Positions 5,610-63,844 of a DNA stretch of 64,000 bases are shown piece after piece. The notes beneath the pieces were generated by a model that had not been told where the DNA came from, did not search any database, and saw nothing but the letters and a program-made list of their open reading frames with translations. The number at the start of each line of letters is the position of its first letter. The stretch's first letter is position 1. This DNA is from Erysipelotrichaceae bacterium (GTDB lineage: Bacteria > Bacillota_I > Bacilli_A > RFN20 > CAG-826), in contig SVAY01000006.1 of NCBI GenBank assembly GCA_015059185.1, positions 14,070 to 78,069 of the forward strand, written 5' to 3'. Made by a program: the position numbers and the translations under genes.

Positions 5610-5629
5610 AGATACTCCTTTCTAATTTA

Positions 5630-6744: not shown

Positions 6745-6765
6745 AATTAATAATATTCCTTAATA

Positions 6766-8051: not shown

Positions 8052-8077
8052 TATCTATTAATTAATCATAAAAATAT

Positions 8078-8110: not shown

Positions 8111-8129
8111 GTTTATAAAACTCAATTAC

Positions 8130-9542: not shown

Positions 9543-9569
9543 ATTTCTTTCTCCTTTTTTCGTTTAGTC

Positions 9570-9703: not shown

Positions 9704-9759
9704 ACTCTTTTTGAAAGAATTTTTTACTCAATTTTTTACAGATTAGAAAAATGTCTTTT

Positions 9760-10095
9760 TTACTGATTTGAACTACTAGTTGTGATTCCTGCTTCAATAA
9801 ATAATGAGAAATATCTTACTATTCCCCACGCTAACATTAAAGAAGCAATAGAGATACCTGCAATCGAGGGCCATTTCACCCTTGTTCCAAATAGTCCGAC
9901 TATCCCTAATATAATAGCAACCGCTGCCATAATCATAGTGATAACAGCAAAAGCTAAACCTAAAAATGGAAGAATAGATAAATAGCCAGGTAATAAAGAT
10001 AATATAGATATAACAAAAGATATAACGGCAAATGGTAATCCCCATTTATGACTATTATTAACTTCTACTACTTCTTGAGTTTGTTCTTCGTTCAT
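9760..10095 (-). CDS. small hydrophobic membrane protein, function unknown
   Basis: 111 aa with three predicted TM segments; overlaps the 3' end of the upstream aminotransferase gene. Confidence 0.5.
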   Translation of the reverse strand: MNEEQTQEVVEVNNSHKWGLPFAVISFVISILSLLPGYLSILPFLGLAFAVITMIMAAVAIILGIVGLFGTRVKWPSIAGISIASLMLAWGIVRYFSLFIEAGITTSSSNQ

Positions 10096-16067: not shown

Positions 16068-17402
16068 CTATCTTCCTAAATATTTCTTAAGTTCGTATTC
16101 ACTAACAGTCGTGTGATATTCCTTCCACTCTTTTTCCTTTGCTTCGATATATTTAGGGAAGAGATGATCACCTAAGACTTCCTTAAGAATTGCACTATTC
16201 CTAAAATCCTTAATCGCAGAATGAAGGGTTGCTGGTAAACATACAATATTACGCGCTTCAATTTCTTCCTCGCTTAGGGCAAAGAGGTTATCGCTGACAG
16301 GGGGAATGATATCGCTGTCTTTAGTTTTTTCGATACCCTCTAAGCCACAAGCTAGGATGCCAGCAAGTGCTAAATATGGATTCGCACAAGGGTCAACATT
16401 TCTTAATTCTGTTCTTGTGGCTAAACCTCTAATAGCAGGAATACGAATGAGCGAACTTCTATTCGCATCACTCCAACATGCGTAGATAGGGGCTTCATAG
16501 CCACTGACAAGTCTTTTATATGAATTAACAATTGGGTTAGTTAATAAACTTAATTCACGAGCGTGACTTAGTATTCCTGTAATCCACTTCTTACATAATA
16601 AGGATAATTCCATCTCACAATTTGGATCATAGAATAAATCACCTTTATCTTTAGAATATAATGAGCAGTTTGTGTGCATGCCGTTACCAGCAAGTTTATT
16701 AAGTGGTTTAGGCATGAAGGAAGCTAGGTAGCCATTCTTTCTAGCGACCATTTTCACAACTTGTTTAAATGTTTGGACACGGTCACAAGCACTGACTACA
16801 TCGATATATTTAAAAGTTATTTCATTTTGGCCTGGACCGACTTCATGGTGAGACGCTTGGACATTAAAGCCCATCTTCTCAAGCATTAAAGCAATTTCTC
16901 TACGGATATTTTCTCCTCCATCAAATGGTGAGAGGTCAAAGTAAGAGGCACTATCACTTAAGGCAGTAGAAGGATTACCATCTTTATCAAGTTTAAAGAG
17001 ATAGAACTCAGGTTCAAAACCAACGTACATGGTTTCAATACCCATCTTATTCATCTTCTCGACCTGTCTTTTTAAGATATAACGAGGATCACCTAAGAAC
17101 GGTTTACCTTCTGGAGTGTAGCAATCACAAATGAATCTAGCGACTCCTCCAACCGAACTATCTTCAAATGGAAGAACTAAGAATGTACCAATATCTGGTC
17201 TAAGATACATATCTGCTTCTTTAATACGGACAAAGCCTTCAATTGAGGATCCATCAAACATAATCTTGTTATTTAATACATCGTCAAGTTTACTTACTGG
17301 TACTTCTACCGCTTTAATATCACCAAGCATATCGGTAAATTGTAGTCTTAAGTATGAAATGTTGTTTTCTTTAATTATTCTTCTGATATCATTTGCGTCC
17401 AT
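16068..17402 (-). CDS. glnA: glutamine synthetase type I
   Basis: GlnA family sequence; start taken at ATG 17402 (MDANDIRR) because AAAGGAG sits 10 nt upstream (the track ORF begins at an upstream TTG). Confidence 0.85.
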   Translation of the reverse strand: MDANDIRRIIKENNISYLRLQFTDMLGDIKAVEVPVSKLDDVLNNKIMFDGSSIEGFVRIKEADMYLRPDIGTFLVLPFEDSSVGGVARFICDCYTPEGKPFLGDPRYILKRQVEKMNKMGIETMYVGFEPEFYLFKLDKDGNPSTALSDSASYFDLSPFDGGENIRREIALMLEKMGFNVQASHHEVGPGQNEITFKYIDVVSACDRVQTFKQVVKMVARKNGYLASFMPKPLNKLAGNGMHTNCSLYSKDKGDLFYDPNCEMELSLLCKKWITGILSHARELSLLTNPIVNSYKRLVSGYEAPIYACWSDANRSSLIRIPAIRGLATRTELRNVDPCANPYLALAGILACGLEGIEKTKDSDIIPPVSDNLFALSEEEIEARNIVCLPATLHSAIKDFRNSAILKEVLGDHLFPKYIEAKEKEWKEYHTTVSEYELKKYLGR

Positions 17403-17557
17403 AATTATAATGCTCCTTTTCAAATATCAATGTAGTTATGTTAGTCGGTTGTCAACAACATTTGAAATACTTATAATATTGTGATTATCATATTTTTTAC
17501 ATATGATAGAAAAAAAGAGGTTAATTCACCCCTTAATGTAAAGTTTTATTTACAAAT

Positions 17558-18439: not shown

Positions 18440-18562
18440 AACTATTTACCTATCATACGAAATTTATATTGTTACCATAATATTATACGTATTTGATTAA
18501 TATAATTCAAAATTTTAAAATCCCCTCATATGAACTAGTTATTGTTCAGTGGAGGAAAAGTT

Positions 18563-20281
18563 ATGACAATAGAATTCTGGTATTTAATTGGTGCTGCATT
18601 AGTGTTCTTCATGCAAGCAGGCTTTGCAATGGTTGAGACCGGTTTTACGAGAGCAAAAAATGCTGGCAATATCATCATGAAGAACTTGATGGATTTCTGT
18701 ATTGGCACAATCGTCTTCATGTTATTAGGATTTGGTCTTATGATGGGTGAAGATACGCTATTTGGGCTTATCGGTATTCCTAACTTAGATTTATTCACTA
18801 AATTTGCATCATTTATTGAAAGCCCAGCAGATGGTTTTACCGCTGCTTCGACATTTGTGTTTAACCTTGTCTTCTGTGCTACTGCAGCAACTATTGTTTC
18901 TGGTTCAATGGCAGAAAGAACAAGGTTCTTATCTTACTGTATTTATTCCGCAATTATCTCTTTAATCATATACCCAATTGAAGCGCACTGGATTTGGGGT
19001 GGAGGTTGGTTAGCCTCTATCGGTTTTCATGATTACGCTGGCAGCACTGCCATTCATATGGTTGGCGGTATCGCTGCTTTAATTGGAGCAATTTTTCTTG
19101 GTCCACGTATTGGTAAATATGAAAGGGACGAGAATGGAAAAGTTATTAAAGTTAATGCTATTCAAGGTCACTCTATACCTTTAGGTGCCTTGGGTGCATT
19201 TATCTTGTGGTTTGGTTGGTATGGTTTCAATGGTGCTGCTGCCACGACCACAAGCGAATTAGCTACTATTTTCTTGAACACAACTATTGCACCAGCAGTT
19301 GCTACAGTAACTACTATGGTTTTTACATGGATTAAAAACGGTAAGCCTGATGTCTCTATGTGTATCAATGCCTGCCTAGCAGGTTTAGTTGGCGTTACTG
19401 CTGGATGCGCAGCTTTTGACGCCATTGGTTCCACTGTTGTTGGTTTGGTCTCTGGTTTCCTAGTCGTCTTTGTGGTTGAGTTTCTTGATCTTAAGTTACA
19501 TATTGATGATCCAGTCGGTGCGGTTGGTGTTCATATGGCAAACGGTATTTGGGGCACACTTGCAGTTGGCTTATTAGCAAACCCAAATGCTCCAGCAGGT
19601 TTAAACGGCCTCTTCTATACTGGTAATTTCTATCAATTAGGAGTACAAGCTTTAGGTTTTATTTCAGTCGCAACCTATACCGCTATATTTATGACCTTAA
19701 CATTCTTCATTATTAAAAAGACTGTTGGTTTACGCGTTAATAAAGAAGAAGAAATTAAAGGTCTTGATAGTACTGAACATGGCTTAACGAATGCTTATGC
19801 TGATTTTGCAATTGCAGCGAATGCTTATGCTGATTATATTGCCGCCGAACCTGTCATTATTACTGGAGAAGCACCCGTTGCGGAAGCTGTTCCAGTTAAG
19901 AAAAATAAAACATCTTCTAACGGTGTGAAGTTCACTAAAGTAGAGATTATATTCAAAGAAGAAAGACTATATGCTTTAAAAACTGCTATGAGCAAAATTG
20001 GCATTATGGGTATGACGGTGTCACACGTTATGGGTTTTGGTCAACAACAAGGCAAACCTGAATATTATCGTGGTGTTCAAGTTGAAGCGGACTTATTACC
20101 AAAGGTACAAGTCGATATCGTTGTATCTAAGATTCCAGTTAGAACCGTTATCGAAACAGCAAAGAAAGTTCTATATACCGGCAATATCGGTGATGGCAAA
20201 ATCTTTGTTTATGATGTTGAAAATGTCGTCAAGGTAAGAACCGGCGAAGAGGGTTATGATGCTTTGCAAGATGTTGAATGA
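18563..20281 (+). CDS. amt: ammonium transporter (Amt) fused in-frame to a C-terminal P-II (GlnB/GlnK-like) domain
   Basis: The Amt core runs to about residue 410; an Ala/Tyr-rich repeat linker follows; the last ~112 aa align to P-II (GMTVSHVMGFGQQQG...GDGKIFVYDV...RTGEEG); start at ATG 18563 after GGAGGAAAAG. Confidence 0.8.
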   Translation: MTIEFWYLIGAALVFFMQAGFAMVETGFTRAKNAGNIIMKNLMDFCIGTIVFMLLGFGLMMGEDTLFGLIGIPNLDLFTKFASFIESPADGFTAASTFVFNLVFCATAATIVSGSMAERTRFLSYCIYSAIISLIIYPIEAHWIWGGGWLASIGFHDYAGSTAIHMVGGIAALIGAIFLGPRIGKYERDENGKVIKVNAIQGHSIPLGALGAFILWFGWYGFNGAAATTTSELATIFLNTTIAPAVATVTTMVFTWIKNGKPDVSMCINACLAGLVGVTAGCAAFDAIGSTVVGLVSGFLVVFVVEFLDLKLHIDDPVGAVGVHMANGIWGTLAVGLLANPNAPAGLNGLFYTGNFYQLGVQALGFISVATYTAIFMTLTFFIIKKTVGLRVNKEEEIKGLDSTEHGLTNAYADFAIAANAYADYIAAEPVIITGEAPVAEAVPVKKNKTSSNGVKFTKVEIIFKEERLYALKTAMSKIGIMGMTVSHVMGFGQQQGKPEYYRGVQVEADLLPKVQVDIVVSKIPVRTVIETAKKVLYTGNIGDGKIFVYDVENVVKVRTGEEGYDALQDVE

Positions 20282-23209: not shown

Positions 23210-24742
23210 ATGGATAAGATATTAGTTTTAGATTTTGGAGGGCAATATAACCAACTAATTGCTCGTCGAGTACGTTCGCTTTCAGTTTTTGCCGAAATTA
23301 AAAACTATGATTGTATAACTAGTGAAGAAATAAAGAATAACGATTATAAAGGAATTATTTTTACAGGTGGTCCTAATAGTGTATATGATCCATCTTCACC
23401 TCATTATTCAAAAGATATCTTAGAATTAGGTATTCCAATCCTAGGAATATGTTATGGTGATCAACTTCTCGCTTATATGAATGGGGCCACTATCACTAGC
23501 GCTAAACATAATAGTGAATATGGCAAGACAACCCTTATCTCTTTGGGTGGAACCATCTTAAAGGGAGTACCAGAAAAAAGCGTCTGTTGGATGAGCCATA
23601 CTGATTATATTAAAGAAGCGCCAAGTGGCTTTAAAACCACTGGTTATACAAATAATTGTCCATGCGCCGTCATGGAGAATAATGAAAAGAAATTTTATGG
23701 CGTGCAATTCCATCCAGAAGTTACTCATACAGAATACGGAATGACGATATTATCAAATTTCGTTTTTGATGTGTGTGAATGTAAAGCTGATTGGAAGATG
23801 GACAACTTTGCTAAAGCTTCAATAGAAAAATATAGAAATGAATTAAAAGATAAAAAGGTTTTATTGGCGCTTTCTGGTGGTCTTGATTCTTCTGTTGTTG
23901 CACTTCTACTTAATAAAGCAATAGGAAAAAACCTTATCTGTGTATTTGTTGATCATGGCTTATTAAGAAAAGATGAAGGAGACTATGTTGAAAAGGTCTT
24001 TAAAGATACATTTGATATTAACCTCATTAGGGTAAACGCAAAAGCGAGGTTCTTAAATGCCCTAAAAGGAGTAACAGATCCAGAAACAAAACGTAAGATT
24101 ATTGGAAAAGAATTTATTGAAGTCTTTACCGAAGAAGCAAAGAAGATTGGGAATATCGATATACTATCACAAGGCACCATTTATCCAGATGTCATTGAAA
24201 GCGGTAGAAACGCCTCAGCAGTCATTAAAAGCCATCATAACGTTGGGGGATTACCAAAAGATATTGGCTTCAAAGGAATAGTTGAACCTTTAAGGGATCT
24301 TTTTAAAGATGAAGTAAGAAAAATTGGTATTGAACTAGGGCTCCCGTTAGAATTAGTTTACCGTCAACCATTCCCTGGACCTGGACTAGCGGTAAGAATT
24401 ATAGGCGAGATTACAGAAGAAAAAATTAAAATTGCTCAAGATAGCGACGCGATACTGAGGGAAGAATTCTTAAAAGCAGGTTTAGATAAAAAAGCAAACC
24501 AATATTTTACCGTTGTTACCAACACACACTCAGTTGGAGTTATGGGTGACGCTAGAACATATGGTTATACCCTTGCTATTAGAGCGGTGACAACCGATGA
24601 CTTTATGACGGCTACATGGACAAGGATTCCTTTTGATACATTAGAGACTATCAGTTCACGAATCACCAATGAAGTCAAAGGCATAAACCGTGTGACATAC
24701 GATATCACAAGCAAACCACCTGCTACTGTTGAATGGGAATAA
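23210..24742 (+). CDS. guaA: GMP synthase (glutamine-hydrolysing), full length
   Basis: N-terminal GATase (GICYGDQ; HPE), ATP-PPase SGGxDSS motif and C-terminal ...TVEWE. Confidence 0.9.
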
Positions 24743-27435: not shown

Positions 27436-28413
27436 TTATTCCCACTCGATTGTTGCGACTGGTTTTGGTGATAAGTCATATAAGACTCTATTAACACCTT
27501 TAACTTCGTTTAAGATACGATTAACAATCTTATTTAAGATTTCGTATGGGATTGGTTCAATTGTCGCGCTTGTGGCGTCTACTGAGTTAACAGCACGGAT
27601 CACAACTGGCCATTCAAATGTACGTTTATTATCTTTAATACCTGTGCTTCTGAAATCTGGAACGATGGTGAAGTATTGCCATACTTTTCCTTCAAGTCCT
27701 GCATTAGCGAATTCTTCTCTAAGAATCGCGTCTGCTTCTCTTACAGCTTCAAGTCTATCACGGGTAATCGCGCCGACACATCTCACACCAAGACCTGGTC
27801 CTGGGAATGGTTGACGATAGACCATATTATGTGGTAAACCAAGAGCTTCACCAACAACACGAACTTCGTCTTTATATAAGAACTTCACTGGTTCAACGAG
27901 TTCAAACTTAAGATCTTCTGGAAGACCACCAACGTTGTGGTGAGCCTTGATGCCTTTAGATTCTAAGATATCTGGATAAATTGTACCTTGACCTAAGAAA
28001 GCAATACCGTCTAATTTACGAGCTTCTTCAGCGAAGACATCAATGAAGATTTTGCCGATAATTTTACGTTTGGTTTCTGGATCGCTGACACCTGCTAAAG
28101 CATCTAAGAATCTGTCAACTGCGTCAACATAGATTAAGTTTGCACCGAGTTCTTCTTTAAATACTTTGATAACTTGTTCTGGTTCGCCTTTACGTAATAA
28201 GCCATGGTTCACGTGAACACATGTTAAGTTATTACCAATAGCTTTGATTAATAAAGCAGCACAGACTGAGCTATCAACTCCTCCAGAAAGGGCTAATAAC
28301 ACTTTCTTATCACCCACTTGGGCTCTAATTGCTGCAATTTGTTCGGCGATGAATTTATCCGCTAATTCTTTAGTGGTAATTCTTGCCATATTTGGATCTC
28401 TAACATCTGACAT
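27436..28413 (-). CDS. GMP synthase ATP-pyrophosphatase + dimerisation domain only (GuaA C-domain paralog; no glutaminase domain)
   Basis: 325 aa with [19 protein letters not shown] and [10 protein letters not shown] motifs, ending TIEWE; about 60% identical to residues ~200-510 of the full guaA in this window; strong RBS AAGGAGG. Confidence 0.8.
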
Positions 28414-39186: not shown

Positions 39187-39756
39187 TTAACCAAATATTG
39201 GAGTATTGCCGTCAAACGCAACAATATTTGCGCCGCTTACCACTTTAATTCCCATGGCGTTAAGTAATTCTCTACCACCTTGGAAGCTCTTTTCAATTGT
39301 GGCACATACACCGACACAATTCGCGCCACCTTGCTTAATAATCTTGATTAATCCAATTGCGGCATTGCCCTTAGCTAGGAAATCATCCACTATTAAGATA
39401 TTTTCATTTGGTAAGATGTATTTCTTGCTGACTGTAACTGTACTAACAGTACCTCTCGTGAAACTTCTTACTTCTTCACTATACACATCTTCATCAACAA
39501 TTTTTGATTTACTCTTTTTTGCAAACACCATATTAACATCTAAGATAGAAGCAACCGCGTAAGCAATTGGAATGCCACTTGTCTCTAATGTTAAAACTTT
39601 ATCAATTCTTGTATCTTTAAATTGATCAACAAAATATCTTGCTAATTCATTAGTGATACTTGGGTTCACTTGATGATTAACGAAAGAATCAACTTTAATG
39701 ATTTCTCCATCAAGTATCTTTCCATATTTACTAATTGCTTCTTCAATAATTTTCAT
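39187..39756 (-). CDS. xpt: xanthine phosphoribosyltransferase
   Basis: 189 aa Xpt-type PRT (ILIVDDFLAKGNA); RBS GAGGT. Confidence 0.8.
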   Translation of the reverse strand: MKIIEEAISKYGKILDGEIIKVDSFVNHQVNPSITNELARYFVDQFKDTRIDKVLTLETSGIPIAYAVASILDVNMVFAKKSKSKIVDEDVYSEEVRSFTRGTVSTVTVSKKYILPNENILIVDDFLAKGNAAIGLIKIIKQGGANCVGVCATIEKSFQGGRELLNAMGIKVVSGANIVAFDGNTPIFG

Positions 39757-39839: not shown

Positions 39840-40355
39840 ATGGATTTAAATAAATATATTGCTATTAGAGAAAACTGGCCAAAGGAAGGTATCTCATTCA
39901 AAGACATCACTCCATTAACCCAAGACCCAGCGGCATTTAAGGAAGCAGTTGAAAGAATGGCGGAACCATTTAAAGGCTTAGGCATCACTAAAGTGTTATG
40001 TGCTGACGCTAGAGGTTTTATCTTTGGTGGACCAGTTGCACTTATCTTAGGTGCTGGTATGTCAATTGCGAGAAAACCAAATAAATTACCATATGTCGCT
40101 TATAGTGAATCATATGACTTAGAATATGGAAGCAATACTCTTGAAGTTGCACCAGGTGCAGTTATTAGAGGTGATAAAGTACTTGTTGTCGATGACTTAC
40201 TTGCTACCGGAGGAAGCGCTATCGCATTAACTAAACTTGCTGAAAGAGCAGGCGGCGAAGTTGTTGGCTATTCCGTCTTAGTGGAATTAACTGGATTAAA
40301 AGCAAGAAACAAACTTAAAGCTCCTACTCATTCTCTAATTCAATACGAATTCTAA
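39840..40355 (+). CDS. apt: adenine phosphoribosyltransferase
   Basis: 171 aa Apt sequence (VLVVDDLLATGGS). Confidence 0.85.
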   Translation: MDLNKYIAIRENWPKEGISFKDITPLTQDPAAFKEAVERMAEPFKGLGITKVLCADARGFIFGGPVALILGAGMSIARKPNKLPYVAYSESYDLEYGSNTLEVAPGAVIRGDKVLVVDDLLATGGSAIALTKLAERAGGEVVGYSVLVELTGLKARNKLKAPTHSLIQYEF

Positions 40356-40408: not shown

Positions 40409-42460
40409 TTAGATTTTCATCGCTACTTCATAGGCACGCCAGATAACACTTCTTAAATTGCCTACTTGTAAACAGTCACCAACGAGATAGACATTCTTTC
40501 CTTTATTCACTAAAGGAGTAGGAATATAGCCGGTAGAAGAGATAACAGAATCAACTTTTATTTCTTCATCACCTTTTTCGCTAGTAACAATAATTGAACC
40601 ATCTTTCACTTCTTTTAATTTAGTAGAAAGATAAACAGGTACTTTTTTATAAGCAAAATATTCTCTTAAATATGATGAGTTAGCTAAGCATACTCCTTTT
40701 TGAGCAATAAGATCATCTTTCATTTCGATGATGATTGGCTTCTTACCTTGAAGTTCTAATTCATAAGCGATTTCTGAGCCGGTTAAGCCTCCACCAATAA
40801 CGGCGACAGTCTTGCCCACTTCTTTACCATTAAGATAGTCACACGCTTCAATCATTCTTTCCTTACCTGGAACATTTAAGATACGAGCTTTACTACCGGT
40901 AGCGATAATAACTAGTTCTCCTTTAAAGGCATCAAGAGACTTAATCTCACTATGATATTTAACTTCAATAGCAAGTTTTTCCATTTGATAACGATACCAA
41001 TTAAGGAGTTCTCTAAGTTTACCTTTATATGATTCACTACTTGCAGGGATGAATGTTCCACCAAGTTTATCACTCTTTTCGTAAATGATTGGACGATGCC
41101 CACGGAGTTTTAATACCCTAGCCGCTTCCATACCACCGATTCCACCACCGACAATATGAACAGTTTTAGGATGCTTAGTAGGAACAATTTTATGCTTCTT
41201 CCACTGCATCATTTCGGCATTCACTGCACAACGAGCAAGATGTAAGGAATCGCTAAGCGCTTGATCATTAGGTACCCCTTTATAATGACACATATTGAAA
41301 CAGCCATTATGACATAAGATACATGGTCTTATTTCTTTTTCTTCATCATTTAATACTTTGGTGAACCATTCAGGATCTGCGAGGAAATTACGCGCAAATC
41401 CTACACCATCAAGCTTTCCTTCTTTTACACTTTTAGCCCCGGCTTCAAGAGTCATTCTTCCTGCAGCCACTAAAGGAACATTCACATATGGTTTAAGTTC
41501 TTCAACATATGAAAGGTTACAGTTTTCTGGCATATAGATTGGTGGATGGGCCCAGTACCAAGCATCATATGTACCATTATCACAGTTAAGCATATCATAT
41601 CCTGCTTCTTCTAAGAGTTTAGCGGCCTTCTTTGATTCTTCAAAATCACGTCCCACTTCTACATATTCTTCTCCTGGGACAGCACCCTCTCTAAAACCTT
41701 TTGTCTTACTAACAACGGAATATCTTAATGAGACTGGGAAGTCTTCACCACACTCTTTCTTAATTGCTTTAACAATCTCAATAGCGAAGCGATATCTATT
41801 TTCTAAACTTCCTCCATATTCATCAGTTCTTTTATTAACATATTTTAGAGTGAATTGGTCTAATAAATATCCTTCATGGACTGCATGGATTTCAACGCCA
41901 TCAACACCTGCTTCTTTACAAAGCTTTGCGCTCTTAGCGAACGCTTGAATAAAGAATTCAATTTCTTTCTTCGTCATCTCTCTAGAAGGTAGACGGTCAC
42001 TCCATCTATTAGGAGAAGGAGAGGCACTAGCAGTAATCTTATCTAGATTCATCACTGGCTTAGCTAAGAAGTTTAATACTTTATTGTTATAAAGCATTTC
42101 CATCATGCTACTAACAGTAAAACTTCTACCAAATCCAGCAGTTAATTGAATAAAGAGTTTCGCTCCTGTCTTATGAAATTCAGGCATCCACTTCTTTAAA
42201 TCATTGAACATCTTTTTATTACGATAAAGCCACTGCCCAAACATCGGGTTATATACTGGTTGACATCCAGGAAGAACAAGACCGCAGTTATTTTTTGCAA
42301 CTTCCAATATGAACTTTGCACCTTCTTTATCAAAGTGGTTTTTCTCCATCCAACCGAATAAATCAGTACCACCCATGGAGGTCAAAACAATACGGTTTTT
42401 AATCTCAAGATTCCTAATCTTCCAAGGAGTTAATAATGGTTCTAATTCTTTTTTCATCAT
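40409..42460 (-). CDS. OYE-family FMN oxidoreductase fused to a Cys cluster and FAD/NAD(P)-binding domains (2-enoate reductase / 2,4-dienoyl-CoA reductase / TMADH-like architecture)
   Basis: N-terminal OYE motifs (KNRIVLTSMGG; HAVHEGYLLDQF), Cys cluster CILCHNGCFNMC...C, and two GxGxxG Rossmann motifs (VHIVGGGIGG; VAVIGGGLTG); ATGA overlap with the upstream gene. Confidence 0.7.
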   Translation of the reverse strand: MMKKELEPLLTPWKIRNLEIKNRIVLTSMGGTDLFGWMEKNHFDKEGAKFILEVAKNNCGLVLPGCQPVYNPMFGQWLYRNKKMFNDLKKWMPEFHKTGAKLFIQLTAGFGRSFTVSSMMEMLYNNKVLNFLAKPVMNLDKITASASPSPNRWSDRLPSREMTKKEIEFFIQAFAKSAKLCKEAGVDGVEIHAVHEGYLLDQFTLKYVNKRTDEYGGSLENRYRFAIEIVKAIKKECGEDFPVSLRYSVVSKTKGFREGAVPGEEYVEVGRDFEESKKAAKLLEEAGYDMLNCDNGTYDAWYWAHPPIYMPENCNLSYVEELKPYVNVPLVAAGRMTLEAGAKSVKEGKLDGVGFARNFLADPEWFTKVLNDEEKEIRPCILCHNGCFNMCHYKGVPNDQALSDSLHLARCAVNAEMMQWKKHKIVPTKHPKTVHIVGGGIGGMEAARVLKLRGHRPIIYEKSDKLGGTFIPASSESYKGKLRELLNWYRYQMEKLAIEVKYHSEIKSLDAFKGELVIIATGSKARILNVPGKERMIEACDYLNGKEVGKTVAVIGGGLTGSEIAYELELQGKKPIIIEMKDDLIAQKGVCLANSSYLREYFAYKKVPVYLSTKLKEVKDGSIIVTSEKGDEEIKVDSVISSTGYIPTPLVNKGKNVYLVGDCLQVGNLRSVIWRAYEVAMKI

Positions 42461-42903
42461 CAAACACCTACTTTCACAGTTCCGTCTTCAAGCACTTCAA
42501 TTGTGTCCCCAGTCTTTACATTATCTAAGAAGTCTTGACCGAGTCGATCAATAGCGATGACAGGGGAGTTTTCCCAAATCTTCGCTAAGACGATGCCAGA
42601 AGCAGCAAGTGAATCAATGGATTCCGAGAAGAGGAAACATGCTGGCGCAATACCCATTTGACATACTGTTTGAATAACTAATCCTCCAGTTGTACTACCA
42701 ATAGTGATCGGTAAACATAATGCTTTACCAGTAATATTGACGCCAAATAAGTCTTTATTATTTTGATCTGAGACTAATACTTCTTTCGCATTCTTTAATG
42801 CGCTTTTTTGGAATGAGGCAAGGGTATTAAAACCTTGATGAGACACGGCAGCTTCACCCTTATAATATCCGCCTGCAATCACGCGTCCTTTATATTCTTT
42901 CAT
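42460..42903 (-). CDS. AcnX (aconitase X) small swivel-domain subunit-like protein (DUF126)
   Basis: ~147 aa with a glycine-rich swivel region (GSTTGGLV); start at ATG 42903 after AAAGGAA (the track ORF begins at an upstream TTG). Confidence 0.55.
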   Translation of the reverse strand: MKEYKGRVIAGGYYKGEAAVSHQGFNTLASFQKSALKNAKEVLVSDQNNKDLFGVNITGKALCLPITIGSTTGGLVIQTVCQMGIAPACFLFSESIDSLAASGIVLAKIWENSPVIAIDRLGQDFLDNVKTGDTIEVLEDGTVKVGV

Positions 42904-42904
42904 A

Positions 42905-44200
42905 TTATTTAGATTCCTTTCCGACAACGAAATCTAATATTTCTTTATCTTTTGCATAACGAGCGAATGAATATGTTCTTAACTTATTTGAACTTGTATA
43001 AATTCGTCGTGATTTGGTGAGAGGATTATTGGTATACATAAGTGGACAAATAGTAGTTAATTTCACACCTGTCGCCATTAACTCTTGATACTTAGGAGTC
43101 TTCATAAATTTATCCTTAATATCAGGAGCGGTCGTTATGATTGTTCTCACCACTACTTTTTTACGCCCTGTTTCTTTTAACCCTTCTTTAATACGATCTG
43201 TCCAACTATTAAGTTGTTCAAATGTTAAATGTGGACAACCAATGAAGACGAGATTGCCTTTCTTCTCTGGTTTCTTCCACATAATTGGATAGCTGCGATA
43301 GACTCTTTCAATCTCTTCATCATCAATGACGTATTCTTTCGCATCAGGTAAGATTAATTTCTCACCATATTTCTTTGCTTCTGGAGTAAGTCCATCAATA
43401 TGATATAAGCCAACTGCTCCATTAGAGGCTGTCGCGGCTCCAAAGTCTTTTAGATAACCGATTGTTTTATCATCAAGTTTATTTCCAATAAGTTTATCTA
43501 ATCCAACGATATAAGGAACATCTTCCATGACCTTCATACCAATGGCAGATCCTAAAATTTGAGCTTCAGGAACATTCTTACATTTAATAATTACTTTCCA
43601 TTTCGCTTTTCTTCCTTCATCAGTGATAAAACCAAATTCTGGAACGAGTCCTAAGATGGAACCAAATAATTCAATCATTCCAGAATTACGATTACATCTT
43701 GCTCCTAGAACCGAGTTTGCAAACACTACCGCACTTGATTCGGCCCAAGAAAGAATATCTCCTTCTTTAGGCGTATTACCAATTTCTGGTAAATATGCTG
43801 CACATGAGAAAGCATTACTATCTTTAAGTCCCACTTTCTTCAACTGCTCTTCATACATTGCTTGCTTTGCATACATAATCTTTGAGAATACGAGTTTCTC
43901 AAGTGGATTACATTTAACGTTTTCATAATCAATTGGGCGAGGATCAACAGTGAACTTACCTTTAGTCTTAATTCCACTTTCAATTAATTGATCCATCGTT
44001 GAAAATAATGGTTTTAATAACTTAATACCAAAACTAGTTACTAAATGGCCATCATGATGAGTAACTTTAACTAACCTAGGTGCGCCAAAAATATCACCAA
44101 ACATCACGACTGTTTCCATGATCTTGGCCATGACTGGACCTTGACTTCCGTTCAGGATATCTCTTTGTTCCGAGGTTAATTCCATCTTTGGTTCATACAT
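42905..44200 (-). CDS. AcnX large catalytic subunit-like protein (DUF521)
   Basis: 431 aa; DUF521/AcnX type II large-subunit-like by motif recollection (several conserved Cys/Ser-rich blocks); RBS AAAGGAG. Confidence 0.55.
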   Translation of the reverse strand: MYEPKMELTSEQRDILNGSQGPVMAKIMETVVMFGDIFGAPRLVKVTHHDGHLVTSFGIKLLKPLFSTMDQLIESGIKTKGKFTVDPRPIDYENVKCNPLEKLVFSKIMYAKQAMYEEQLKKVGLKDSNAFSCAAYLPEIGNTPKEGDILSWAESSAVVFANSVLGARCNRNSGMIELFGSILGLVPEFGFITDEGRKAKWKVIIKCKNVPEAQILGSAIGMKVMEDVPYIVGLDKLIGNKLDDKTIGYLKDFGAATASNGAVGLYHIDGLTPEAKKYGEKLILPDAKEYVIDDEEIERVYRSYPIMWKKPEKKGNLVFIGCPHLTFEQLNSWTDRIKEGLKETGRKKVVVRTIITTAPDIKDKFMKTPKYQELMATGVKLTTICPLMYTNNPLTKSRRIYTSSNKLRTYSFARYAKDKEILDFVVGKESK

Positions 44201-44349: not shown

Positions 44350-45261
44350 TTATACATTACGTTGTAATAATTCGCATTTGTATTTCATTGGACTGTTTTT
44401 CAAGGCCACGATAATACGCTCCTCATTATAATATTTAATCCACTTATGAATTGCTTCACGTAACTGATTAATATTCTCATATCTCCATTCCTGACCATAG
44501 AATACTTCTTCCTTTAATCTTCCGAAGAAGTTCTCTGTTGGAGAATTATCTAAGCAATTGCCTTTCCTAGACATTGATTGAATCATTTGATGCTCTTCAA
44601 GGAAATCTTGATACCACTTTTGTTGATATTGCCAACCTTGATCAGAATGAATAATAGAACCAGGAAGATATGCTTTATATTTATCCTCTAACTGATGCAT
44701 CATTCTTTTGATTTGAAGCATATTTGGATGGATTGAGATGTCATATGAAACAATCTCGCGTGTATGGAAATCGATGATTGGAGAAAGGTATAGTTTGTCT
44801 TCTCCTATCCTAAATTGAGTAACATCAGTTCCAAATACTCTATATGGCTCTCCAACATCAAAATGACGCTTTATTACATTAGGTGCTTTTGACCCAACTT
44901 CTCCACGATAAGAACAGTATTTCTTTTTCTTAGGTTCCGCTGAAATATGATGCTCTTTCATAATTCTTGCCACTTTCTTTTCGTTGATATGAATACCTCT
45001 ATTGTTTAATTCAATCGTTATACGTGGATATCCATATTTTTTATAATGGCTATCGAAGATAGACTTTATTAGCTTGGCTAAATCATCATCCTTATGTTTT
45101 CTTTCTTCTCCATATTTTAAAACATCATAATAAGTAGATTTAGATAACTTTAAATATTTTAGAAGGACATCTAGTTTGATTCGGCCCTTGAGCTCATTAA
45201 CGATTTGTACCTTTTCCTCAATCGTTTGTCCTTCTTTAAAGCCAGGGCCAAGGATTTTTTT
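44350..45261 (-). CDS. IS3-family transposase OrfB (DDE integrase core), expressed as an OrfAB fusion by -1 frameshift at AAAAAAA (45255-45261)
   Basis: DDE core with HSDQG...NxxxESxFxxLKxE motifs; the reading frame stays open upstream back to the slippery heptamer. Confidence 0.75.
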   Translation of the reverse strand, partial: KKILGPGFKEGQTIEEKVQIVNELKGRIKLDVLLKYLKLSKSTYYDVLKYGEERKHKDDDLAKLIKSIFDSHYKKYGYPRITIELNNRGIHINEKKVARIMKEHHISAEPKKKKYCSYRGEVGSKAPNVIKRHFDVGEPYRVFGTDVTQFRIGEDKLYLSPIIDFHTREIVSYDISIHPNMLQIKRMMHQLEDKYKAYLPGSIIHSDQGWQYQQKWYQDFLEEHQMIQSMSRKGNCLDNSPTENFFGRLKEEVFYGQEWRYENINQLREAIHKWIKYYNEERIIVALKNSPMKYKCELLQRNV

Positions 45262-45740
45262 AATATTTCATTCTCATCTTCTAAATGTTTACATCTATCC
45301 TTCAATTCTTTATCTGCTAAAAACCTTTGACGGTCTTCATGAAGCATGTACTTTTTTCTGCCTCTAGAAATTTGGATCCCTTCTTCACCTTTTTCTTTAT
45401 ATTTTCTTACCCACTCACCGACAGAATCTGCATCAGGTGTTCCTACCTCAGCTGCTACCTGCCGAGCTGATTTTTTCCCGCTCAAAACCTCTTTAATTGC
45501 TGCTAATTTCTCTTCGCGAGTATAGATTCTTTCTTCTTGTTCATCAGTAAAAGGTTTTTCACCATGAATCTGATAAACCTTTGCCTTGTGTTTTAAGGCA
45601 CTTACATTAAATTTGTACTTTTGAGCTAACTTTGTCATAGGTACGCCATCATCGACGTATAGTTTGACAATTCTTAGCCATTCACTTGGCCGTCTTTCCA
45701 TAAAGAAAACCCCCTTAAATTGTACCGAATTTTGGTCCAA
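45171..45740 (-). CDS. IS3-family transposase OrfA (HTH + leucine-zipper)
   Basis: 189 aa with an HTH and a coiled-coil C-terminus, typical of OrfA. Confidence 0.75.
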   Translation of the reverse strand: MDQNSVQFKGVFFMERRPSEWLRIVKLYVDDGVPMTKLAQKYKFNVSALKHKAKVYQIHGEKPFTDEQEERIYTREEKLAAIKEVLSGKKSARQVAAEVGTPDADSVGEWVRKYKEKGEEGIQISRGRKKYMLHEDRQRFLADKELKDRCKHLEDENEILKKSLALALKKDKRLRKRYKSLMSSRAESN

Positions 45741-45765
45741 TAAACGGGGGTATTTTCAATCACTT

Positions 45766-45850
45766 TGGTGCGGCTAGCAGGAATCGAACCTGTACGGGTT
45801 GCCCCACTAGATCCTAAGTCTAGCGCGTCTGCCAGTTCCGCCATAGCCGC
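45766..45850 (-). tRNA. tRNA-Leu (anticodon TAG)
   Basis: Hand-folded 85-nt cloverleaf with long variable arm, anticodon loop CUUAGGA, encoded CCA. Confidence 0.8.
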
Positions 45851-45891
45851 AAATAGTTAACCCCTCTAAATAGAGGGGTATTTCTTTAAAT

Positions 45892-45967
45892 TGGTGCCGT
45901 CTATCGGAATCGAACCAACAACCTACTGATTACAAATCAGTTGCTCTGCCAATTGAGCTAAGACGGC
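45892..45967 (-). tRNA. tRNA-Thr (anticodon TGT)
   Basis: 76-nt cloverleaf, anticodon loop UUUGUAA, T-loop TTCGATT, encoded CCA. Confidence 0.75.
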
Positions 45968-45976
45968 ATTTCTTTT

Positions 45977-46051
45977 TGGTGGACACTACAGGGATCGAAC
46001 CTGTGACCTCTTCCGTGTGAAGGAAGCGTTCTCCCGCTGAACTAAGTGTCC
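45977..46051 (-). tRNA. tRNA-Val (anticodon CAC)
   Basis: 75-nt cloverleaf, anticodon loop UUCACAC, encoded CCA. Confidence 0.75.
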
Positions 46052-46162
46052 AATCGCTTATTAATACTACCAAACACTTTTCCTTTTTTCAATTGATAAG
46101 GCTGAGGTCGGGGGTTCTTATAAAAAATAAACCATGGAAGGTTTACTTTTTTAAAATCCATT

Positions 46163-46239
<77 letters not shown>

Positions 46240-58041: not shown

Positions 58042-59460
58042 ATGAAATATAACGTAGTACTCGTCGGAGCTGGTCCTGCTGGATATTTTGCAGCTTACGA
58101 ATTAACAAAAATCAACCCATCTTTAAAGGTGGCTTTAATCGACCGTGGTCATAGCATTGAGAAAAGAAGATGCCCAGTGCTTGAACACAGAATCCAAAAA
58201 TGCCCAATCGGCAAAGGTGGCAGCCTAGGAGAATGTGCTCCTGCATGTTCCATTACCAATGGTTTTGGTGGAGCAGGTGCTTATTCAGATGGTAAATTCA
58301 ACATTACAACTGAATTCGGTGGTTGGTTAACTGACTACATCAGTGATGAAGAATTATTAGACTTAATCAATTATGTTGATCAAATCAATCTTTCATTCGG
58401 TGCAACTGAAACCATCACTAATCCAAACACTCCTGAAGTCAAAGCTATTGAACTTAGAGCGATGTCTGCTGGACTCAAACTATTAAGAAGTAGAGTGAGG
58501 CATTTAGGTACAGAAGAAAACTTAAAGATCTTAACTAAAATCTCTAACTATTTAAGTGACAAGATTGATATGTACTTTGGAACAAAAGTTGAAGATATCA
58601 TTGTCGAAGATAATGTGGTTAAAGGTGTTGTCCTTCAAGATGGTACCAAGTTTGAAGCTGATTATGTGGCCTTAAGCGTTGGTAGAGAAGGAAGTAAGTG
58701 GCTCAATGAAATCTTAGAAAGACGCGGAGTCAAGATGAGCCAAACCCAAGTTGATTTAGGTGTTCGTGTCGAATGTCCTAACTTGATCATGGAAGAAATC
58801 AATAACACCTTATATGAAGGTAAATTCTTATACAAAACCTCAACTGGAAATACAGTGAGAACTTTCTGTTCCAATCCAGGTGGACACGTCGTTGTTGAAA
58901 ACTATGAAGGTGTTGTGAACGTTAATGGTCACTCCTATAACGATTCAAAACTCAGTAGTAACAACACCAACTTCGCTTTACTTGTTTCACATCACTTTAC
59001 TGAACCATTTAAAGAACCAAATGAATATGCCAAAAAGATCTCATCCCTTGCTAACCAATTAGCGTGTGGAGGCGTTATTGTTCAAAGATATGGCGATATC
59101 CTTTTAGGTAGAAGATCTACTGAGAAAAGAATCAAAGAAGGCTTTGTTAAACCAACATTAAAAGAAGCGGTTCCTGGCGACTTAACTCTTTGCATTCCTC
59201 AAAAAACTATGCAATCCATCATCGAAATGATTCAAGTCTTAGATAAAATCACTCCAGGTATTGCTACAGAACACACCTTATTATATGGAGTAGAAGCTAA
59301 ATATTATTCTGCTCACCCAAACATCGATGAAAAACTTGAAGTGAGAGAAATTAAAAATCTCTATGTCGGTGGAGATGGCGCAGGTCTCACAAGAGGCTTA
59401 GCCCAAGCCGGAGCTTCAGGTGTATATATCGCAAGAAATATTGCGGGAAAGGTCAAATAA
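58042..59460 (+). CDS. FAD-dependent dehydrogenase-like flavoprotein (COG2509-type) with a Cys-rich insert
   Basis: N-terminal GAGPAG dinucleotide-binding motif; CPVLEHRIQKCPIGKGGSLGECAPAC cluster; start at ATG 58042 after GGTGA. Confidence 0.55.
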   Translation: MKYNVVLVGAGPAGYFAAYELTKINPSLKVALIDRGHSIEKRRCPVLEHRIQKCPIGKGGSLGECAPACSITNGFGGAGAYSDGKFNITTEFGGWLTDYISDEELLDLINYVDQINLSFGATETITNPNTPEVKAIELRAMSAGLKLLRSRVRHLGTEENLKILTKISNYLSDKIDMYFGTKVEDIIVEDNVVKGVVLQDGTKFEADYVALSVGREGSKWLNEILERRGVKMSQTQVDLGVRVECPNLIMEEINNTLYEGKFLYKTSTGNTVRTFCSNPGGHVVVENYEGVVNVNGHSYNDSKLSSNNTNFALLVSHHFTEPFKEPNEYAKKISSLANQLACGGVIVQRYGDILLGRRSTEKRIKEGFVKPTLKEAVPGDLTLCIPQKTMQSIIEMIQVLDKITPGIATEHTLLYGVEAKYYSAHPNIDEKLEVREIKNLYVGGDGAGLTRGLAQAGASGVYIARNIAGKVK

Positions 59461-59462
59461 CT

Positions 59463-60656
59463 ATGTCTAGATACGTAGGAACAACAAGTAGAGGCATTAG
59501 ATGCCCAATCATCAAAGAAGGTGACAAGTTAGAAGACATCGTCACTGAAAGTGTTTTATTAGCAAGTAAAGAGGAAGGTTTCCCAATTAAGGATAAGGAT
59601 GTTATCGCAATTACCGAAAGTATCGTTGCCCGTAGTCAAGGAAACTACTGCACAATCGATGATATTGGAAATGATATCAAAGCTAAATTCAATAGCGACA
59701 CCATCGGAGTTATCTTCCCAATCTTAAGTAGAAATAGATTCTCCATCTTACTTAAAGGTATCGCTAGAGGAGTAAAGAAAATTGTCTTAATGCTCTCCTA
59801 TCCAAGTGATGAAGTTGGTAATGCATTATTAACTTATGATGATTTAGATGAAAAGGGCGTTAACCCATATAGTGATGTTCTCTCTTTAGAAAGATATAGA
59901 CAATTATTCGGTTATCGTTTACACGAATTCACCGGTGTTGATTATATCGAATATTATCAAGAATTGATTAGAGGCGAAGGATGTGAAGTTGAAGTCATCT
60001 TCTCTAACAACGCTAGAGCAATCCTTAAATACACTCCATACGTCTTAGCATGTGATATCCATACAAGAAGAAGAACTAAGAGAATCCTTAAAGAAGTAGG
60101 CGCTAAAATCGTCCTCGGCCTTGATGACATTATGACTTCTTCTATTAAAGGAAGCGGATTCAACAAAGACTACGGCTTACTCGGTAGTAACAAGGCTACT
60201 GAAGATAAAGTCAAACTCTTCCCAAGAGATTCCCAATGGTTAGTAGAAGAAATCCAAGCTAGGATCTTAAAAGCAACTGGTAAACACGTTGAAGTTATGG
60301 TCTATGGTGATGGAGCCTTCAAAGATCCACAAGGAAAGATTTGGGAACTCGCTGACCCAGTGGTCTCCCCATTCCATACCTCAGGTTTAGTTGGCACTCC
60401 AAACGAACTCAAACTCAAATACTTAGCGGATAACGAATTCAAAAACCTCACTGGTGAAGAATTAAAAGCTGCTATTGAAAAGAGAATCAAAGAGAAAGAC
60501 GCTAACCTCAAAGGTACAATGGCAACTCAAGGTACTACCCCACGTCAATTAACAGACTTAATCGGTTCCTTATGTGACTTAACATCTGGTTCCGGTGATA
60601 AGGGTACACCAGTCATCTTAGTCCAAGGTTACTTCGATAACTACACTAACGACTAA
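59463..60656 (+). CDS. CofE-superfamily (F420-0:gamma-glutamyl ligase fold) protein with a central insertion
   Basis: CofE-like blocks IKEGDKLEDIV, VIAITESIVARSQGN, YGDGAFKDPQGKIWELADP and GSGDKGTPVILVQGY. Confidence 0.5.
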   Translation: MSRYVGTTSRGIRCPIIKEGDKLEDIVTESVLLASKEEGFPIKDKDVIAITESIVARSQGNYCTIDDIGNDIKAKFNSDTIGVIFPILSRNRFSILLKGIARGVKKIVLMLSYPSDEVGNALLTYDDLDEKGVNPYSDVLSLERYRQLFGYRLHEFTGVDYIEYYQELIRGEGCEVEVIFSNNARAILKYTPYVLACDIHTRRRTKRILKEVGAKIVLGLDDIMTSSIKGSGFNKDYGLLGSNKATEDKVKLFPRDSQWLVEEIQARILKATGKHVEVMVYGDGAFKDPQGKIWELADPVVSPFHTSGLVGTPNELKLKYLADNEFKNLTGEELKAAIEKRIKEKDANLKGTMATQGTTPRQLTDLIGSLCDLTSGSGDKGTPVILVQGYFDNYTND

Positions 60657-60678: not shown

Positions 60679-60710
60679 AAGGCCTAACATGAAAGTTAGG
60701 TCTTTTTATA
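60679..60710 (+). terminator. intrinsic terminator after the CofE-like gene
   Basis: AGGCCTAAC-ATGAAA-GTTAGGTCT hairpin followed by TTTTT. Confidence 0.6.
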
Positions 60711-60816
60711 TCACACATAGTATATTTTTTTGAATACCCAAATTGAAACTAGAGCATAAGCTCTAGTTCATTCAACCAATTGTTCTAATCAACCTTTATA
60801 ATAGTTCCTATTATAG

Positions 60817-61983: not shown

Positions 61984-62736
61984 ATGATAAATGGGATGGA
62001 TGAAATAGATATTTTAAAATCAATGCTCGAGCATTCAAACCGTATAGTCTTCTTTACGGGTGCTGGTATCTCCGTTCCTAGTGGGATTCCAGATTTTCGA
62101 AGTGCGGACGGCTTATATAACCAAAAAGATAAATCAAATTATTCTCCAGAAGAGATTATCTCTCACTCATTTTATGTAGCCCATAAAAGAGAGTTCTATA
62201 CATTCTATAAAGACAAGATGGTTTATCCTAACGCTAAACCAAATATTGCTCATAAATTTATCGCTGATCTACAAAATGAAAAAGAGGTAACTGTCGTCAC
62301 CCAAAACATCGATGGTCTACATCAAGAAGCAGGAAGTAAAAAAGTCATTGAACTACATGGCTCAGTAAAACGTAATTACTGCGAAAGATGTGGAGCCTTC
62401 TATGATGATAAATATGTGATGGCGTCTAAAACTATTCCAACATGCTCAAAGTGCGGAGGAGATATTAAGCCAGACGTCGTCTTATATGAAGAAGGATTAA
62501 ACGAAGAGGATATTAGTAATGCCATCACTGCCATTATGAAAGCAGATACCTTAGTAATTATTGGCACCTCTTTAGTGGTCTACCCAGCAGCAGGCTTTAT
62601 CCGTTATTTTAAAGGCAATGCCCTCATTGTCATCAATAAAGATAAAACATCTTATGATAATATGTGTGACTTAGTAATTAATGACGATGTCACGAAAGTG
62701 ATTAATAAACTCAATGAAAAAAAGACCGCTAAATAA
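61984..62736 (+). CDS. cobB: NAD-dependent protein deacylase, Sir2 family (CobB-like, with Zn ribbon)
   Basis: GAGIS(V)PSGIPDFR motif, four Cys of the Zn ribbon, catalytic His in HGS. Confidence 0.8.
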   Translation: MINGMDEIDILKSMLEHSNRIVFFTGAGISVPSGIPDFRSADGLYNQKDKSNYSPEEIISHSFYVAHKREFYTFYKDKMVYPNAKPNIAHKFIADLQNEKEVTVVTQNIDGLHQEAGSKKVIELHGSVKRNYCERCGAFYDDKYVMASKTIPTCSKCGGDIKPDVVLYEEGLNEEDISNAITAIMKADTLVIIGTSLVVYPAAGFIRYFKGNALIVINKDKTSYDNMCDLVINDDVTKVINKLNEKKTAK

Positions 62737-63844
62737 AGAAGAAATACAAAAAATATGGGACTTTTACTATGAATTTAGCAAAAATCCTGTTTTAAATAAA
62801 CTTTATAACACTCCTCAACATCGTACATCTAATACCTATCGTCATGTCTGTTTAGTTACTAGACTCTGTTTATATAAAGCAACGAAAAAAGGATACGATT
62901 TAGATTATGAATCTTTAATTAGAGGAGCGTTCCTCCACGACTTATTTTTCTATGACTGGAGAGTTGATAAAGAAAATAGAAAACATCACTTAACTCGTCA
63001 TCCAGAAAAAGCAATTAATAACGCGAAGCAATATTTCGAACTTAATGATACTGAAATAGATATCATCCGTAATCATATGTGGCCTATTACCATTACTAAA
63101 TTCCCTCACACAAAAGAAGGAAAGCTTGTCATGATGATGGATAAAAAAGCAACGATGATTGAAGTCTTTAATAAGCGTAAAAACTTACTAGTATTTGATT
63201 TAGATGGTACCCTTGTTGATACCATCCCAGATTTAAACGGCAGTATCAATTATATGTGCGAACAAATGGGCTTCCCAAAAAGAAGTTTAGAACATACCCG
63301 TATCTCTATTGGTAATGGAGTCCCTGTATTAGTTAGACGTTCAGTTCCAGAAGGGACTAATGAGATAGATTATTTAAAGGCTTTAGAAATATTTAAAGCT
63401 CATTATATAGAACATGCTTTAGACTTATCTAAACCATATGATGGGATGTACGACACTCTTAGAAGATTAAGAAAAAGAGGCTACACTTTAGCAGTCGTTA
63501 CTAATAAGAATGAAGATATGGCGAAAAAGATCATCGACGGCTTCTATCCTAATATGTTTGTGACTGTTGTGGGTGGAAACGGTATTAGAAAACCTAAGCC
63601 AGATTATGAAATGATTAATGAATTACGCAACCGCATCAAAATTCGTCGCCCTCGAAGTGCAGCTTATATTGGCGATACAGAAGTCGATTACTTAACTGCT
63701 AGAAGAGCGTTAATGCCTACATATATTGTGACGTATGGCTACCGTACTAGAGATGAATTAGATTCTCTCAATTTTAAAAATGTCACTTATATTGACCATC
63801 CAAGTGACTTATTAATGTATTTTACAAAGAAATCAAAATATTAA
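62714..63844 (+). CDS. HD-domain phosphohydrolase fused to a HAD-superfamily phosphatase
   Basis: N-terminal H...HD motif (LHDLFFYD); C-terminal DLDGTLVDT and KPKPD HAD motifs; overlaps the sirtuin gene by 23 bp. Confidence 0.65.
   Translation: MKKRPLNKEEIQKIWDFYYEFSKNPVLNKLYNTPQHRTSNTYRHVCLVTRLCLYKATKKGYDLDYESLIRGAFLHDLFFYDWRVDKENRKHHLTRHPEKAINNAKQYFELNDTEIDIIRNHMWPITITKFPHTKEGKLVMMMDKKATMIEVFNKRKNLLVFDLDGTLVDTIPDLNGSINYMCEQMGFPKRSLEHTRISIGNGVPVLVRRSVPEGTNEIDYLKALEIFKAHYIEHALDLSKPYDGMYDTLRRLRKRGYTLAVVTNKNEDMAKKIIDGFYPNMFVTVVGGNGIRKPKPDYEMINELRNRIKIRRPRSAAYIGDTEVDYLTARRALMPTYIVTYGYRTRDELDSLNFKNVTYIDHPSDLLMYFTKKSKY

Follow-up and report, generated by a model that had tools for sequence, protein, structure and literature searches.

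The present analysis concerns two adjacent genes, designated here as open reading frames 1 and 2 (ORF1 and ORF2), within a 64,000-nucleotide stretch of the genome of an Erysipelotrichaceae bacterium (GenBank assembly GCA_015059185.1, contig SVAY01000006.1, positions 14,070 to 78,069), which is referred to below as the window. ORF1 occupies positions 58042-59460 of the plus strand and encodes 472 amino acids (aa) from its ATG, the frame being open also from a GTG at 58030 (476 aa). ORF2, at 59463-60656 on the same strand, encodes a "long" CofE-like protein of 397 aa, composed of a PF01996 core and two inserts. Between the stop codon of ORF1 (TAA, 59458-60) and the ATG of ORF2 at 59463 lies a 2-bp spacer, CT. 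A ribosome-binding-like GGTGA precedes the ORF1 ATG at 58042 by 7 nt, and the corresponding site of ORF2 (GGAAAGG, 10 nt upstream) is embedded in the 3' end of ORF1.

An intrinsic-terminator-like hairpin with a T-run closes the two-gene unit (60679-60712, plus strand; hairpin 60679-60704, 10-bp stem with 4 GC pairs); it is the only such structure downstream on that strand, and none was found between the two genes. Because the pair is bounded upstream by a divergent gene for a GGDEF-EAL membrane protein and downstream by a convergent UDP-glucose-dehydrogenase-like gene, and because a single terminator follows both reading frames, ORF1 and ORF2 constitute a self-contained unit, with a G+C content of 38% in the region as compared with 35% across the window. 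Promoter-like sites were no more frequent than in shuffled sequence, and the region preceding ORF2 contained no Rfam element, riboswitches included, either in the window or in 11 homologous loci. Mapping of the reading frames, spacer and hairpin confirms the existence and tight coupling of both genes, which a preliminary description made from the sequence alone had reported as adjacent plus-strand genes with a 2-bp spacer and a common terminator.

At the level of family and fold, ORF2 belongs with CofE. The F420_ligase model PF01996 matches it with an E-value of 2.7e-54, its 218 positions extending over residues 11-389, such that approximately 160 residues of the protein lie beyond the model, mainly in the two inserts. 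Given an alignment of 31 representative sequences (35-62% identity), AlphaFold2 returned a model with a predicted local distance difference test score (pLDDT) of 93.6 and a predicted template modelling score of 0.90; single-sequence structure prediction gave a pLDDT of only 40.8. Searched against the PDB with Foldseek, the model returned CofE of Archaeoglobus fulgidus as its best match (2phn, 2g9i and 7uld; E 1e-7 to 1e-5, probability 1.0), with a template modelling (TM) score, normalised to the target, of 0.53. A direct sequence search of the PDB had placed CofE at E~0.02, and the match was settled by the fold search. ORF2 has the CofE fold, with matches far beyond chance, and the assignment to the F420-ligase fold in the preliminary description is thereby upheld by both the Pfam search and the structural model.

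Much of what distinguishes the protein resides in its inserts, of which that description had recognised one of about 150 aa; this insert is real (~155 aa), but a second of ~55 aa had been missed. Insert 1 (residues ~80-235; 59700-60167, plus strand) is modelled as a Rossmann-like beta-alpha domain of five beta strands alternating with helices. Searched alone, it matches no Pfam family, and it weakly resembles domains of the eIF2B and ribose-1,5-bisphosphate-isomerase type (Foldseek, probability 0.95-0.99, E 4e-3 to 6e-2). It holds four of the 13 residues that are invariant in the family (S89, N91, R92 and D116), together with the nearly invariant E117, G119, N120, H154, T157, H200 and R202, contained in the conserved motifs SRNR, DEVGN, HPxTG and HxR; this placement of conserved residues suggests a putative binding site for an anionic, probably phosphorylated ligand. 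Insert 2 (residues ~301-356; 60363-60530, plus strand) is mostly helical and lies between the YGDGAFKDP/WELADP block and the GTTPR block, and the pLDDT drops to 61-75 around residues 341-360. Longer "fusion" homologues of ORF2, joined to reverse transcriptase, transporter or histidine kinase sequence, proved to be chimeric fragments and are uninformative.

Comparison with A. fulgidus CofE (AfCofE, AF2256) delineates how far the resemblance extends. The two proteins belong to the same PF01996 family and have the same core fold, including the blocks KEGDxL, ITES(I/V)xA(R/K)xQG and GxxxSN, a further block that follows the central strand, and GxGxxGTP-V-hhh-G as the closing strand. CofE, however, comprises only ~250 aa and lacks the 155-aa Rossmann-like and 55-aa helical inserts. 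Against the models that define true CofE equivalogs, ORF2 scores 40.9 and 43.6 bits, far below the respective cut-offs of 180.65 (TIGR01916) and 274 (NF009809), and the match is confined to its N-terminus (residues 14-74).

The differences extend to the deazaflavin-binding elements. AfCofE binds the deazaflavin through F92, through G153-C155 and through Arg234, which the partner contributes from its C-terminal tail (PMC10861534). The ORF2 chain stops eight residues beyond the block that corresponds to AfCofE 192-220, with no conserved Arg among those eight, and therefore has no Arg234 tail; insert 1 takes the place of the F92 region. In a low-scoring alignment, D109 of AfCofE (GIDASN) faces L240 of ORF2 (GLLGSN) and E208 (MGEGG) faces S377 (SGSGD), L240 being nearly invariant and S377 invariant in the long family, while D283 is the ORF2 aspartate near the positions of D150 and T151. 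Nocek and colleagues (2007) are said to have identified D109, D150, T151 and E208 as the Mn2+ ligands of AfCofE, which we take here as a lead only. The YGDGAFKDP block of ORF2 stands where AfCofE presumably has TDTNGRC, a string of which only G153-C155 is documented.

These features bear directly on the possibility that ORF2 is a true F420 ligase, which would glutamylate F420-0 or a related deazaflavin scavenged from rumen or gut methanogens. Family and fold membership, the current database name and the predominance of rumen and gut samples among contigs homologous to ORF2 speak for such an enzyme, as do the F420 biosynthesis genes predicted in some Firmicute genomes (PMC8498797). On the other side, both equivalog models fail by a wide margin, two residues that contact the chromophore are missing with the Arg234 tail and the replaced F92 region (PMC10861534), and two putative metal ligands are substituted. 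Furthermore, no cofC, cofD, cofG, cofH or fbi gene was found within the window or in the 4 kb that complete the contig, and no cof or fbi gene recurs as a neighbour across ~100 homologous ORF2 loci. Clostridioides difficile, which carries an orthologue described below, is not known to produce F420. An F420 ligase is, on this evidence, highly improbable, and ORF2 very probably represents a distinct, uncharacterised and mis-named subfamily of the CofE/FolC2 (PF01996, COG1478) superfamily rather than a CofE or F420 enzyme. This agrees with the earlier view that ORF2 is no ordinary CofE, now founded on the equivalog failure, the missing Arg234 tail and the absence of F420 genes from the window; the accompanying statement that F420 synthesis is not known from low-GC Firmicutes has to be qualified, since F420 biosynthesis genes have been reported in several Firmicute genomes (review, PMC8498797). 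Nothing was found in support of the flavin-like or deazaflavin-like substrate that had been proposed.

The subfamily is large and widely dispersed. ORF2 matches 1629 clusters at 50% identity with E<=1e-3, of which 333 reach E<=1e-30, and more than 8000 clusters at 90% identity; at least 595 GTDB species genomes, those of anaerobic Firmicutes, carry a long-family member. Neighbourhood counts given below refer to the 80 best species-level loci among these genomes, which encode proteins 71-80% identical to ORF2 and derive mostly from rumen and gut metagenome-assembled genomes. Their hosts include Erysipelotrichaceae, Acholeplasmatales, Lachnospiraceae, Oscillospiraceae, Acutalibacteraceae, Christensenellaceae and Phascolarctobacterium (Negativicutes). 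The orthologue of C. difficile (P0504, 399 aa, 67% identity to ORF2) was recovered with a profile of distant members and occurs in 20,673 blocks of the contig collection. Long-family proteins are named "coenzyme F420-0:L-glutamate ligase" in all sources, a name that is wrong on the present evidence. Identity of 67-80% maintained across bacterial classes implies that the protein must have an important function, and searches of the available literature collection on the long family, COG2509 and PF01996 found no functional study, in keeping with the preliminary description of the function as uncharacterised.

An exoproteome study of C. difficile detected the orthologue and interpreted it as FbiB (PMC8225638); in a transposon-sequencing (Tn-seq) supplement for the same species, the gene does not appear with an F420 or glutamyl-ligase name. 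The gene is monocistronic, with a divergent LysR regulator gene 119 bp upstream (L096/L097, 6995-9200). Two Lachnospiraceae loci (L029 and L038) have a LysR gene at the corresponding place, 42% identical to that of C. difficile, which points to a conserved dedicated regulator; a divergent LysR gene also precedes the ORF2 homologue of locus L083.

A second candidate function is provided by the one characterised COG1478 member outside F420 producers, FolC2 of Chlamydia trachomatis (CT611), a CofE homologue whose host has no F420 and which complements an E. coli folC mutant; the gene lies in a folBKPA operon and replaces the missing FolC (PMC1971073, PMC4161248). FolC2 thus works on another glutamylated cofactor (PMC1971073, PMC4161248). 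Because of this precedent, a CofE homologue outside F420 producers is less surprising, and ORF2 could analogously be an alternative dihydrofolate synthase/folylpolyglutamate synthase that adds glutamates to de novo or salvaged folate. That CT611 complements this folC mutant (PMC1971073, PMC4161248) favours this possibility, and no folC occurs in the 64-kb window; folate and purine metabolism are linked, and genes of folate metabolism were sighted near three homologues, namely glyA directly downstream (L059), the serine hydroxymethyltransferase gene (glyA) ~5 kb away (L098) and folD 3 kb upstream (L094). Three sightings nevertheless approximate the chance expectation in a rough estimate that assumes genomes of ~2500 genes, ~10 of them folate genes, and ~90 loci whose neighbourhoods hold ~10 genes each. 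In contrast to FolC2 as described in the literature, ORF2 homologues show no clustering with folB, folK, folP or folA in any of ~100 loci. Moreover, whereas FolC2 substitutes for FolC, the 67%-identical orthologue of C. difficile coexists with a classical folylpolyglutamate synthase, CDR20291_3111, which is essential in Tn-seq (PMC4358009 supplement); since the classical enzyme is essential there, the orthologue is not a FolC replacement in that organism. A FolC2-type function is accordingly improbable.

The partner gene, ORF1, encodes a flavin adenine dinucleotide (FAD)-dependent protein of the COG2509/VP0956 type. It matches PF21688, the "FAD-dependent protein C-terminal domain", with 50 bits against a cut-off of 27, and gives partial Pyr_redox_2 and GIDA matches, while no NCBIfam model came near its own cut-off. 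The N-terminus opens with VGAGPAG (residues 8-14). An N-terminal GxGxxG FAD fold and PF21688 are both present; the dinucleotide-binding motif GAGPAG noted in the preliminary description is borne out at residues 9-14 (58066-58083, plus strand) and is invariant in 14 of 14 homologues. The sole solved relative, the Vibrio parahaemolyticus protein VP0956 (PDB 3nlc), is itself uncharacterised; its alignment with ORF1 spans residues 146-469 (E 4e-26), and a profile gives E 4e-31. As the alignment starts at about residue 107 of the 3nlc chain, ORF1 is without the ~100-aa N-terminal domain of VP0956; conversely, a four-cysteine insert, C44-x9-C54-x10-C65-x3-C69 (58171-58248, plus strand), is present in ORF1 and missing from the VP0956 alignment. 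All four cysteines are invariant in the 14 homologues (74-95% identity), and, judged from the sequence, the insert is probably a metal site, either Fe-S or Zn. The cysteine cluster reported at first is therefore real and its C-x3-C element correct, but its first spacing is x9, not x8.

The extent to which ORF1 and ORF2 belong together was assessed from both sides. An ORF1 homologue lies beside ORF2 in three of the 80 species loci (L003-L005, the closest relatives); the remaining 77 have none within 6 kb. In the reverse view, six ORF1 homologues at 76-80% identity were inspected: four are followed by an F420_ligase gene 2-5 bp downstream (L086, L088, L092 and L094), one is separated from its ORF2 homologue by 1.1 kb containing a divergent LysR gene (L083), and one has no ORF2 nearby (L091). 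The tight pair, with 2-5 bp between its genes, thus occurs in eight loci (the window, L003-L005, L086, L088, L092 and L094), in all of which the flanking genes differ, and a neighbour-joining tree places the ORF1-adjacent copies of ORF2 in one Bacilli clade together with two copies lacking ORF1. Since the pair survives eight flanking contexts, yet in a single clade only, the link is real but lineage-specific: the operon is maintained, and it is an invention of one Bacilli lineage rather than a property of the family. The flavoprotein had been proposed as the partner of ORF2; it is not a general partner, and that part of the proposal finds support within this clade only.

Locus L083 offers an informative variation. 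Its gene order is ORF1, LysR, ORF2, short GuaA (a GMP-synthase paralogue discussed below), phosphoribosyltransferase and Bmp (5001-11419; also L084), and its ORF1 is 80% identical to that of the window, whereas its ORF2 is only 66% identical and belongs to a different subtype, which suggests that a LysR-ORF2-GuaA cassette of the Clostridia type took the place of the CofE-like gene. The adjacency of ORF1 and ORF2 might also be explained as an inherited accident of one clade, with each protein acting independently, and the 77 loci without an ORF1 homologue, the solitary ORF1 homologue of L091, the restriction of ORF1-adjacent copies to one clade and the monocistronic gene of C. difficile would all be compatible with this. 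It is less easily reconciled with a 2-5 bp spacing kept in eight loci with entirely different flanks, or with the persistence of both genes within 1.1 kb in L083 despite the different ORF2 subtype. We regard independence as unlikely and functional coupling of ORF1 and ORF2 in the clade of the window as probable. The logic of such an operon has a counterpart in mycobacterial FbiB, in which a CofE domain is fused to a flavin-dependent, FMN nitroreductase-like reductase domain acting on the same substrate (PMC8498797). FbiB and the operon alike pair a ligase of the CofE type with a redox partner that uses flavin, but ORF1 is a separate FAD protein of the unrelated glutathione-reductase-type fold (COG2509) rather than a nitroreductase domain, and the comparison is an analogy only, with no sign of homology to ORF1 or of a common substrate.

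A different gene accompanies ORF2 across the family as a whole. When all reading frames of the 80 species loci were clustered, the only recurrent neighbour was a GMP-synthase paralogue of ~325-345 aa, located directly downstream on the same strand in 32 loci, or ~44% of the loci with enough downstream sequence. The gap to ORF2 has a median of 17 bp and measures 17-150 bp in most of the 32 loci. This short GuaA consists of the PP-loop synthetase and C-terminal (GMP_synt_C) domains with the canonical ...GTIEWE end and has no fused GATase (glutamine amidotransferase) domain; in 29 of the 32 loci, no separate GATase gene adjoins it either. The other three loci, all from Erysipelotrichaceae (L009, ~2007-3299; L033, Beduini, ~7172-8503; L080, Traorella, ~5706-6995), encode GuaA proteins of ~430-443 aa that start 23-37 bp downstream of the CofE-like gene and keep an ~80-aa glutaminase remnant (36-41% identity), which looks like an intermediate stage in the loss of the glutaminase domain. 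Neither this family-wide neighbour nor the C. difficile copy and the FolC2 precedent had figured in the preliminary description.

In the window itself, the short GuaA paralogue (325 aa; 27436-28413, minus strand), found by tblastn and containing GMP_synt_C and PP-loop domains without GATase, lies 30 kb from ORF2. It shares 72% identity with the copy of locus L058 and 55% with the synthetase portion encoded by the full-length guaA (23210-24742), a gene that follows purA and purB. Because a full-length guaA and the short paralogue are both present, the organism apparently has two GMP synthases. The short gene is the last in an operon that runs on the minus strand from 34082 down to 27436 and encodes a Bmp/PnrA-like lipoprotein, an ABC ATPase and two permeases, a nucleoside-transporter operon headed by a purine riboswitch (RF00167; 34182-34279, minus strand; 43.9 bits, gathering score 37). 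The short GuaA of the window is apparently ammonia-dependent and purine-regulated. ORF2 was also considered as an obligate ammonia-supplying subunit of the short GuaA, an idea that was dropped because in C. difficile and in the window genome ORF2 is separate from any short GuaA.

An ammonia-assimilation cluster in the window would be relevant if the short GuaA uses free ammonia; it encodes a 579-aa ammonium transporter fused to a P-II domain (18542-20281, plus strand), together with glutamine synthetase, glutamate dehydrogenase and a LysR regulator (also 16068-17423 and 11364-12608, both minus strand). Nucleotide-salvage genes are unusually abundant, with five phosphoribosyltransferase-family genes and a xanthine/uracil permease within the 64 kb (397-993, 6766-7425, 7515-8051, 39187-39756, 39840-40355 and 8130-9542), a wealth that fits a salvage-dependent organism with a small genome.

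Further purine- or nucleotide-related genes occur beside individual ORF2 homologues: purA directly downstream (L038), purA and purB in the vicinity (L104), Bmp and 5'-nucleotidase genes flanking the homologue in one Lachnospiraceae locus, and a uridine-kinase-family gene after it (L094). With the recurrent short GuaA, they lead us to a reading in which the role of ORF2 is tied to purine nucleotides, for which the chances appear slightly less than even.

Taken together, these observations allow a tentative proposal, which we consider somewhat less likely to hold as a whole than to need revision: ORF2 would be a nucleotide-dependent amide ligase for a non-F420, phosphorylated and probably nucleotide-like substrate in the context of guanine/purine metabolism, with ORF1 catalysing a redox step. 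According to this scheme, ORF2 would keep the chemistry of its family, in which a carbonyl or carboxylate of the substrate is activated at the expense of a nucleoside triphosphate and then undergoes attack by an amine; this amine would probably be an amino acid, for example L-glutamate. The phosphorylated, probably nucleotide-like substrate would be held by the Rossmann-like insert of ORF2, and the physiological setting would be the salvage and interconversion of guanine or purine nucleotides. In the Bacilli clade of the window, the translationally coupled ORF1 would probably act on the same substrate in a redox step that depends on flavin and metal.

Several points weigh against this proposal. 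The loss of two putative metal ligands could mean that ORF2 is no two-metal GTP-dependent ligase at all; given the altered putative metal site, retention of ligase chemistry by ORF2 is about evenly poised. Purine neighbours other than the short GuaA are individually rare and sporadic. The adjacency of ORF1, confined to one clade, could partly reflect shared ancestry, and neither ORF1 nor the short GuaA is obligatory, since ORF2 stands alone in C. difficile and numerous other genomes. A broader formulation, in which the long CofE-like protein of several hundred gut and rumen anaerobe species, C. difficile among them, catalyses an undescribed reaction on a guanine-nucleotide-derived or other phosphorylated metabolite, with the four-Cys COG2509 protein and the short GuaA performing further steps of the same pathway, is conceivable though doubtful.

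Other features of the window were recorded in passing. On the minus strand, an insertion sequence (IS) element lies within 44350-46239, with an rve integrase reading frame (44350-44973) and a helix-turn-helix transposase reading frame (45171-45740), directly beside four tRNA genes (45769-46239). An operon at 40409-44200 (minus strand) contains genes for the large and swivel subunits of a two-subunit aconitase X (AcnX) and for a 684-aa fusion of Old-Yellow-Enzyme and pyridine-nucleotide-disulfide oxidoreductase. A SIR2-family deacetylase gene (61984-62736) overlaps the next gene (62714-63844) by 23 nt (62714-62736); the latter matches HAD-family phosphatase models, and its N-terminal half appears HD-domain-like by eye only.

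What emerges is a conserved family of uncharacterised enzymes whose annotation misleads, rather than a system of a new class. The wrong F420 label reaches the pathogen C. difficile and dominant Firmicutes of the rumen and gut, and relabelling of the long CofE-like genes would end false inferences of F420 metabolism in gut metagenomes. Discovery of the substrate could add a step to the nucleotide or cofactor metabolism of anaerobes and could give the uncharacterised COG2509 flavoproteins their first functional context.

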